Positions 35,549 through 37,264 of a DNA stretch of 64,000 bases are shown here, one piece after another (position 1 is the stretch's first letter; each line of letters starts with the position of its first letter). Source of the stretch: Escherichia coli (GTDB lineage Bacteria > Pseudomonadota > Gammaproteobacteria > Enterobacterales > Enterobacteriaceae); assembly GCF_003334305.1 (NCBI RefSeq), contig NZ_QOWS01000006.1. One strand, given 5' to 3'. The position numbers were made by a program, and so were the translations under genes. The notes under the pieces are model-generated. The model worked only from the letters and a program-made list of their open reading frames with translations. It had not been told where the DNA came from and did no database searches.

Positions 35549-35641
35549 TGCTTCTACCAGGGGCTTAAAGAAGATAAACGTTAGCACACTGCGAGCGAGG
35601 CGACGACCATTATTGTCGATTAAATTGTGTCTGCGGCTTGA

Positions 35642-35660
35642 CCTTCCCGTAAGGGGAAGG
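35642..35660 (+). promoter_or_regulatory. CueR (MerR-family) operator in cueO promoter
   Basis: Perfect dyad CCTTCCC-gtaag-GGGAAGG sitting between a TTGACC -35-like hexamer (35638..35643) and TATGCT -10-like hexamer, with a long MerR-type spacer; about 55 nt upstream of the cueO ATG. Confidence 0.8.
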
Positions 35661-35713
35661 ACTATGCTCAACGTTTGATTTTGTTTCGCCTGCTTAAGAA
35701 TAAGGAAATAACT

Positions 35714-37264
35714 ATGCAACGTCGTGATTTCTTAAAATATTCCGTCGCGCTGGGTGTGGCTTCAGCCTTGCCGCTGTGGAGCCGCGCAGTCTTTGCGGCG
35801 GAACGCCCAACGTTACCGATCCCTGATTTGCTCACGACCGATGCCCGTAATCGCATTCAGTTAACTATTGGCGCAGGTCAGTCTACCTTTGGCGAGAAAA
35901 CTGCAACTACCTGGGGCTATAACGGCAATCTGCTGGGGCCGGCGGTGAAATTACAGCGCGGCAAAGCGGTAACGGTTGATATCTATAACCAACTGACGGA
36001 AGAGACGACGTTGCACTGGCACGGGCTGGAAGTACCGGGTGAAGTCGACGGCGGCCCGCAGGGAATTATTCTGCCAGGTGGCAAGCGCTCGGTGACGTTG
36101 AACGTTGATCAACCTGCCGCTACTTGCTGGTTCCATCCACATCAACATGGCAAGACCGGGCGACAGGTGGCGATGGGGTTGGCTGGGCTGGTGGTAATTG
36201 AAGATGACGAGATCCTGAAATTAATGCTGCCAAAACAGTGGGGTATCGATGATGTTCCGGTGATTGTTCAGGATAAAAAATTTAACGCTGATGGGCAGAT
36301 TGATTATCAACTGGATGTGATGACCGCCGCCGTGGGCTGGTTTGGCGATACGCTGCTGACCAACGGTGCAATCTACCCACAACACGCTGCCCCGCGTGGT
36401 TGGCTGCGCCTGCGTTTGCTCAATGGCTGTAATGCCCGCTCGCTCAATTTCGCCACCAGCGACAATCGCCCGCTGTATGTGATTGCCAGCGACGGTGGTC
36501 TGCTACCTGAACCGGTGAAGGTGAGCGAGCTGCCGGTGCTGATGGGCGAGCGTTTTGAAGTGCTGGTGGAGGTTAACGACAACAAACCCTTTGACCTGGT
36601 GACGCTACCGGTCAGCCAGATGGGGATGGCGATTGCGCCGTTTGACAAGCCGCATCCGGTAATGCGGATTCAGCCGATTGCTATTAGTGCCTCCGGTGCT
36701 TTGCCAGACACATTAAGTAGCCTGCCTGCGTTACCTTCGCTGGAAGGGCTGACGGTACGCAAGCTGCAACTTTCTATGGACCCGATGCTCGATATGATGG
36801 GTATGCAGATGCTAATGGAGAAATATGGCGATCAGGCGATGGCTGGAATGGATCACAGCCAGATGATGGGCCATATGGGGCACGGTAATATGAATCATAT
36901 GAACCACGGCGGGAAGTTCGATTTCCACCATGCCAATAAAATCAACGGTCAGGCGTTTGATATGAATAAGCCGATGTTTGCGGCGGCGAAAGGGCAGTAC
37001 GAACGTTGGGTTATCTCTGGCGTGGGCGACATGATGCTGCATCCGTTCCATATTCACGGCACCCAGTTCCGTATCTTGTCAGAAAATGGCAAACCGCCAG
37101 CGGCTCATCGCGCGGGCTGGAAAGATACCGTTAAGGTAGAAGGCAATGTCAGTGAAGTGCTGGTGAAGTTTAATCACGACGCACCGAAAGAACATGCTTA
37201 TATGGCGCACTGCCATCTGCTGGAGCATGAAGATACGGGGATGATGTTAGGGTTTACGGTATAA
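35714..37264 (+). CDS. cueO: multicopper oxidase CueO (cuprous oxidase), Tat-secreted
   Basis: ORF-track extended; native start [28 protein letters not shown] (twin-arginine signal) gives 516 aa; Met-rich insert [46 protein letters not shown]; copper ligands [13 protein letters not shown]. Confidence 0.96.

Follow-up and report, generated by a model that had tools for sequence, protein, structure and literature searches.

Methionine-rich tracts recur in many copper-handling proteins, among them CueO, one of the three copper-defence systems of Escherichia coli, which makes the working of such tracts a matter of general interest. The stretch of E. coli DNA analysed here (the window; 64,000 nucleotides [nt] from contig NZ_QOWS01000006.1 of assembly GCF_003334305.1) encodes a CueO product in which one segment, residues 355-400, is dominated by methionine and histidine. 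The original prediction, drawn from the letters of the sequence alone, had put this segment forward as a candidate lid that binds Cu(I) and covers the substrate site, and as a likely hotspot for length variation. The locus raises the question of what the segment contributes to the enzyme, and of whether its length is free to change. Judged by its sequence, the segment is the known methionine-rich domain of E. coli CueO itself and not a mere look-alike, and it very probably serves both as a lid and in the recruitment of Cu(I), with a conserved helix over the type 1 (T1) copper and the Cu5 site, followed by a flexible loop, speeding the oxidation of Cu(I) without being essential to it. The evidence for identity, composition, ligand residues, the pattern of order and disorder and the pattern of length variation comes from the present analysis; for copper binding, the effect as a lid and the part in recruitment, it comes from experiments published for a protein that has the same Met-rich segment and 99% identity overall.

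The cueO coding sequence (35714-37264, plus strand; 516 amino acids and a stop codon) specifies a periplasmic multicopper oxidase, the cuprous oxidase that belongs to the CueR regulon. Its true start is the ATG at 35714, with which both the PDB sequences and the twin-arginine translocation (Tat) signal agree; the TTG at 35675, at which a mechanical list of open reading frames (ORFs) begins the gene, was rejected on the same grounds. The product aligns end to end (residues 1-516) with the CueO chains of PDB entries 5b7e and 7f0v at 99% identity, and it also matches the mature crystallised chains (1kv7, 3od3 and others), which comprise 488 residues and place the mature start at A29, residue 1 of 1kv7_A corresponding to residue 29 of the query. 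Ahead of this point lies the Tat signal peptide (residues 1-28; 35714-35797, plus strand), with the motif RRDFLK and a Pfam TAT_signal match at residues 1-20. The three cupredoxin domains of the multicopper oxidase type are recognised by Pfam as Cu-oxidase_3 at residues 55-165 (PF07732, E-value 1e-30), Cu-oxidase at 221-293 (PF00394, 1e-4) and Cu-oxidase_2 at 399-516 (PF07731, 2.5e-23), and an AlphaFold model of the product shows a beta-rich, three-domain pattern. Furthermore, a 391-nt cueO query found a match in 5425 of 5426 complete E. coli genomes, with cueO as the annotation in all 100 listed rows and also in the Citrobacter matches, and the gene order speE-yacC-cueO-gcd is conserved, with speE and yacC upstream and gcd downstream, all on the opposite strand. 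The earlier gene call of cueO is thus upheld by the PDB identity and by the annotation in both genera, and no evidence was found that contradicts it.

Relative to the crystallised K-12-type protein, the product differs only by G61E, P120L and S191N (codons at 35894-35896, 36071-36073 and 36284-36286), all of them outside the Met-rich segment. E61 and N191 recur in three database sequences (P0002, P0003 and P0010), and L120 appears in none of the aligned homologues, P120 forming part of a conserved GIIPPGG stretch in domain 1. The representative of the 90%-identity cluster carries D391 where the window product has G391.

The segment itself spans 46 residues encoded at 36776-36913 (plus strand). 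It contains exactly the peptide originally quoted as a stretch of about 45 residues dominated by Met and His. The coordinates first proposed for it (36775-36915) enclosed the right segment but lay 1-2 nt off the codon boundaries, and translation from 36775 is out of frame and runs into a stop. Fourteen of the 46 residues are Met, eight are Gly and five are His, so that Met and His together account for 19/46 (41%); elsewhere in CueO the shares are 3.2% for Met and 3.8% for His. The binomial tail for at least 14 Met is approximately 1e-10, and no 46-residue window with 14 Met arose when the entire protein was shuffled 20000 times (mean maximum 6.3, highest 12). The spacing of these residues generates six M-x-x-M and four M-x-x-x-M motifs. 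At the DNA level, the expectation of dense ATG and CAT triplets held for ATG alone: at the rate of the window as a whole, the 138-nt segment should contain 2.4 ATG, and it has 15, the densest occurrence in the 64-kb window, while CAT occurs twice where 2.1 would be expected and so shows no enrichment, since CAC accounts for three of the five His codons.

Several observations mark this segment, which sits in domain 3, as an insert. Residues 294-398 are covered by Pfam only through weak, low-scoring Cu-oxidase (PF00394) matches. When other multicopper oxidases (FtsP/SufI, laccases) are aligned by phmmer, many of the alignments end at about residues 341-358, and the first aligned stretch of the engineered deletion variant 2yxv reaches residue 356 only, breaks that are as expected for an insert into a common fold. 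The catalytic residues of that fold are in place. The T1 ligands and all eight histidines of the trinuclear centre occur at their expected positions in the product, and H443, H446, H448, C500, H501 and H505 are invariant in a 65-sequence alignment. One span (37040-37243, plus strand) encodes the T1 ligands H443, C500, H505 and M510 together with the trinuclear-centre residues H446, H448, H499 and H501. The ligands of the additional copper sites Cu5, Cu6 and Cu7 have been assigned in published work (PMC11494321), and every one of them is present. Cu5 is made up of M355 and D360 from the segment and of D439 and M441 from the cupredoxin core, the codons for D439-M440-M441 lying at 37028-37036 (plus strand) and D439 and M441 facing the Met-rich helix, whereas the Cu6 ligands M358 and M362 and the Cu7 ligands M364, M368 and M376 all fall in the first half of the segment.

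The segment divides into two dissimilar halves, evident from composition. The helix half (residues 355-379; 36776-36850, plus strand) has nine Met and no His, and most of its columns are invariant across 13 Escherichia and Citrobacter sequences. The flexible loop half (residues 380-400; 36851-36913, plus strand) has five Met, five His and five Gly, and no ligand that PMC11494321 lists for Cu5, Cu6 or Cu7 falls within it. In an AlphaFold2 model built from the 65-sequence alignment, with a mean predicted local distance difference test score (pLDDT) of 91 and a predicted template modelling score of 0.89, a helix is predicted at residues 357-375, with block pLDDT values of 89-91 for residues 351-370, and confidence then drops to block values of 57 (381-390) and 47 (391-400), residues 394-399 falling below 50. 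Crystal structures have been described as showing a Met-rich helix at 357-369 followed by a disordered loop (PMC6155172), for which electron density is missing in most CueO structures and which is fully modelled only in 3OD3 (PMC6155172, PMC12041951). The predicted helix and low-confidence loop match the crystallographic reports.

In the mechanism favoured here, a conserved amphipathic Met-rich helix (approximately residues 357-375) in domain 3 would pack over the T1 site, with M355 and D360 joining D439 and M441 of the core to complete the substrate site Cu5, and a flexible Met/His/Gly loop (approximately 380-400) would form the second part of the segment. Helix and loop together would shield T1, keeping bulky phenolics out and rendering the enzyme specific for Cu(I). 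Their exposed thioethers would provide weak, transient Cu(I) sites able to strip Cu(I) from strong chelators and to pass it on to Cu5, where it would be oxidised, the electron travelling through T1 to the trinuclear centre for the reduction of O2. The insert would in this manner accelerate oxidation without being indispensable to it.

The first element of this mechanism, the lid, is well documented. The Met-rich segment covers the T1 copper and hinders bulky substrates (PMC6155172, PMC11494321), and its deletion raises phenol oxidase activity 33-fold (PMC11494321). In line with these reports, the G304K variant gains laccase activity as the helix and a neighbouring loop shift and uncover T1 (PMC6155172). 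Taken together with the finding that Cu5 alone serves as substrate site in the oxidation of Cu(I) and that Cu6 and Cu7 ligand mutants behave like the wild type (PMC11494321), such results could also be read as evidence that the segment is primarily a steric gate that excludes organic substrates from T1, its Met and His residues mattering little for copper handling. This explanation is improbable on several counts. At 30%, Met is far more abundant than a pure lid would require, the enrichment being extreme, and two residues of the segment, M355 and D360, are direct Cu5 ligands (PMC11494321). Deletion variants, moreover, lose activity selectively: oxidation of Cu(I) chelated by bicinchoninic acid (BCA) falls to 10-20% of wild type, a loss of 80-90%, and that of unchelated Cu(I) stays at about the wild-type level (PMC11494321). 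Conversely, the CueO of Hafnia alvei, with a loop 22 residues longer than that of E. coli and a more Met-rich domain, performs better on chelated Cu(I) (PMC12041951). From the deletion results, the authors concluded that Cu(I) is recruited from strong chelators through transient complexes with the many methionines (PMC11494321). The lid over the substrate site first envisaged from the DNA is hence substantiated by the 99% identity to CueO, by the presence of all the ligands and by the published description of the T1 cover, with one qualification: the 2024 work found the domain to be non-essential for Cu(I) oxidation and Cu6 and Cu7 to be dispensable (PMC11494321), so that the segment is a facilitator of Cu(I) recruitment and not a requirement for catalysis.

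Two further roles have to be weighed against recruitment. Cu(I)-soaked crystals show extra copper at Cu6 and Cu7, inside the segment (PMC11494321), and the His-rich loop could bind Cu(II), as would be anticipated if the segment were a stoichiometric copper sponge that holds several Cu(I)/Cu(II) ions per molecule independently of catalysis. Inductively coupled plasma optical emission spectroscopy, however, detected no additional bound Cu(I) once unbound copper had been removed, which makes the binding transient (PMC11494321), and anaerobic copper stress calls for catalysis rather than for the binding capacity of the Met-rich domain (PMC12510620). A failure of catalytically dead CueO to protect at physiological expression levels, although its segment is intact, has also largely been reported. 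A sponge is accordingly the least credible of the alternatives. Slightly less far-fetched, but still very unlikely, is a main role in maturation, through the metallation of apo-CueO around Tat export, or in partner docking, through the transfer of Cu(I) from CusF or CopA. The possibility was raised by the authors of PMC11494321 themselves, and since deletion strains show near-wild-type resistance, such a role might come into play in other circumstances. Direct evidence was not found, though; the deletion variants are still active and copper-loaded (2yxv and 8r4h structures), which speaks against maturation, and against a partner the same authors cite how little the resistance changes on deletion (PMC11494321).

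Additional evidence on the relation between Met content and the insert comes from the wider family, although it has to be read with caution. Among 119 full-length representatives of 50%-identity clusters, the stretch equivalent to K350-F404 spans 5-77 residues (median 10; 55 in the window product), and its Met count rises with insert length (r = 0.81), a scaling that a purely steric gate would not call for; yet these figures derive from one rough automatic alignment with uncertain anchor columns, and many of the proteins are probably not CueO orthologues. This caveat is among several points that weigh against the lid and recruitment interpretation. In the conditions examined, strains with the deletion variants resist copper almost as well as the wild type (PMC11494321), and in anaerobiosis what matters is catalysis, not the capacity of the domain to bind copper (PMC12510620). 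The literature found also assigns no role to the five loop histidines. The physiological importance of Cu(I) recruitment is uncertain.

The second question raised by the locus, whether the segment is a hotspot for length variation, receives a different answer within and between species. Within E. coli, no length change of the segment was found in approximately 5400 complete genomes. With a 100-nt query whose centre lay on the loop, 5418 complete E. coli genomes gave a match, the matched length equalled the query length in 100 of 100 evenly sampled E. coli genome rows, and the weakest of the 5425 matching records still showed 94.9% identity and no indel, which excludes indels of at least about 9 nt in the matching genomes, although rare one- or two-codon indels could escape these searches. 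Tandem Repeats Finder (TRF; minimum score 30) detected no tandem repeats at 36600-37100, so that slippage-prone DNA is not a feature of the window.

The most divergent E. coli match (H40, strain L37) was considered as a possible length variant and set aside, the gene being an annotated pseudogene with a frameshift and an internal stop. In this strain (NZ_CP034589.1), the cueO pseudogene (L001, 1447-2979) is 83.5% identical over its aligned part, next to intact speE, yacC and gcd, and could reflect either real decay or a low-quality assembly. Ten matches to the cueO fragment lie on E. coli records classed as plasmids, and some genomes are matched in up to three places; these may be chromid-like plasmids, duplications or misassemblies.

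Between orthologues, in contrast, the length of the segment does vary. Among the best 120 database matches, CueO measures 516 residues in Escherichia, 519 and 521 in Citrobacter amalonaticus, and 536, 539 and 544 in others, the 539-residue form being represented by 110 clusters from C. freundii and C. portucalensis. The stretch that runs from S354 to the residue before FDFH takes up 48 residues in the window product and 51, 53, 68, 71 or 76 in Citrobacter, whose loops are 3-28 residues longer than that of E. coli. All of the Citrobacter insertions fall between H387-M388 and H390, and the helix half is nearly invariant. Alignment of orthologues hence bears out the anticipated variation in length between species but confines it to the loop half, and the segment is neither absent from nor invariant among orthologues, nor, by the published ligand assignments and the described T1 cover, is it remote from the copper sites.

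The C. freundii genes point to how such differences may arise. Those encoding 539 and 544 residues, with loops of 44 and 49 residues where E. coli has 21, are exactly one 15-nt unit apart (GGCAATATGAATCAT, encoding GNMNH), and this unit lies inside a tandem array for which TRF reports 3.0 and 4.0 copies, respectively, of the consensus unit CAATATGAACCACGG. The longer variant is unlikely to be an assembly error, because it has been recorded from several sources and contigs, and replication slippage may be inferred as the source of the length variation in Citrobacter. A second small repeat (GGCAACATG, two copies) is present in the loop-coding region of C. freundii cueO (L002 and L003, approximately 1656-1772). 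In one of these loci (L003), a plus-strand methyl-accepting chemotaxis gene (TarH/HAMP/MCPsignal) lies 3' of cueO in place of the opposite-strand gcd, and in the other (L002) the gene downstream of cueO has no Pfam annotation.

Two shorter E. coli-like database sequences, P0008 (471 residues) and P0010 (470 residues), were examined as natural losses of the insert and rejected, their gaps lying in domain 2 and their Met-rich segments being intact. The domain 2 deletions in these sequences amount to 45-46 residues and come from single contigs of 6.1 and 2.0 kb, and may be artefacts. P0002, also E. coli-like, is likewise suspect: it carries an internal 47-residue duplication in domain 2 and a C-terminal truncation, again with an intact Met-rich segment, on a single 7.5-kb contig.

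Variation of this kind is open to a neutral interpretation, according to which the loop half is low-complexity sequence drifting by slippage and selection acts on the helix half only. The loop is disordered, holds no assigned ligand and changes in length among close relatives, in Citrobacter by whole repeat units, as such drift would predict. Even so, its Met/His/Gly/Asn character is kept in every Escherichia and Citrobacter variant, insertions bring further Met and His instead of arbitrary residues, its length is fixed across the E. coli genomes, and in Hafnia greater activity on chelated Cu(I) goes along with the longer loop (PMC12041951). Neutral drift of the loop is for these reasons no likelier than a purely steric role for the segment. 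A somewhat better, but still doubtful, proposal would make the loop half (residues 380-400) an evolvable dial, set in length and in Met/His content by in-frame repeat slippage in genera such as Citrobacter and fixed in E. coli. If so, the loop would tune the stripping of Cu(I) from the chelators typical of the niche of each species, and its histidines could have a role of their own, for instance in Cu(II) release or hand-off. This proposal is already foreshadowed by the Hafnia work and would represent a modest extension of what is known.

Upstream of cueO, the sequence reads as a promoter of the CueR type (MerR family), with a putative operator, at 35638-35668 on the plus strand, as judged by inspection and pattern matching. 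Its hexamers, TTGACC (35638-35643) and TATGCT (35663-35668), are 19 bp apart, and long spacers are typical of MerR-family promoters. Between them lies a perfect 7-bp inverted repeat on the same strand, CCTTCCC (35642-35648) and GGGAAGG (35654-35660) with five nucleotides in between, a palindrome that we take to be the CueR box.

Elsewhere in the window, four gathering-level Rfam matches were recorded, and no tRNA genes were found in its entire 64 kb. The strongest of these matches (105 bits; 4185-4274, plus strand) is to RF02797, PssrA ("plasmid-encoded Shigella sRNA A"), and runs from the end of a 420-aa ORF (2943-4205) into the beginning of the ORF that follows (4266-5417), apparently ftsA and ftsZ to judge by their position; the match is odd, in that the family is named as plasmid-encoded and the locus is a chromosomal cell-division intergenic region. 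A tp2 match (103 bits; 21746-21859, minus strand) lies just upstream of an 887-aa ORF at 21862, an STnc40 match (82 bits; 9921-9990, plus strand) falls at the end of a 901-aa ORF, and a naRNA4/CssrE match (78 bits; 10394-10471, plus strand) is intergenic.

Much of what can be said of the segment is already known. Its composition, structure, copper sites, deletion phenotypes and variability between species have all been published, reportedly in studies by Roberts in 2002/2003, Kataoka in 2007, Singh in 2011, Cortes in 2015 and Contaldo in 2024/2025. The points added here are the restriction of length variation to the loop, the single 15-nt unit that separates two C. freundii variants, and the fixed length of the segment in E. 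coli.

The segment is presumably similar to PcoA, to CopA and to the "Mets motifs" of Ctr1 and CusF. Its closest counterpart is the CueO (YacK) of E. coli K-12 (PDB 1KV7, 1N68, 3OD3 and 3NT0, the last with Cu5, Cu6 and Cu7 occupied; deletion variant 2YXV), which is the same gene with the same segment: all 46 residues are identical to the crystallised sequence, and the copper ligands, the gene neighbourhood and the putative CueR-type promoter match as well. The CueO proteins of Hafnia alvei (PDB 8R4F; PMC12041951) and Citrobacter (519-544 residues) are like that of E. coli in the position of the segment in domain 3, in the helix, in the Cu5 ligands and in the disordered Met/His/Gly-rich loop that follows the helix. 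They depart from it in loop length and, in C. freundii, in a 15-nt tandem array of three or four copies where the E. coli gene has none detectable by TRF. More distant parallels share Met-rich, at times also His-rich, elements near T1 in three-domain, copper-linked oxidases. Among them are the hairpin of Thermus thermophilus, the tails of lactic-acid-bacteria laccases and further inserts in multicopper oxidases of copper resistance, which were the subject of a review by Roulling et al. 2022 (cited in PMC11494321). Their architecture and behaviour nonetheless differ from those of CueO. Deletion of the Thermus hairpin brings neither a rise in phenol oxidase activity nor a drop in electrochemical cuprous oxidase activity (PMC11494321), and, where CueO carries its Met-rich segment as an insert in domain 3, the Thermus element is a hairpin, the other oxidases bear inserts at other insertion points, and the laccases of lactic acid bacteria have Met/His-rich C-terminal tails (PMC12723717).

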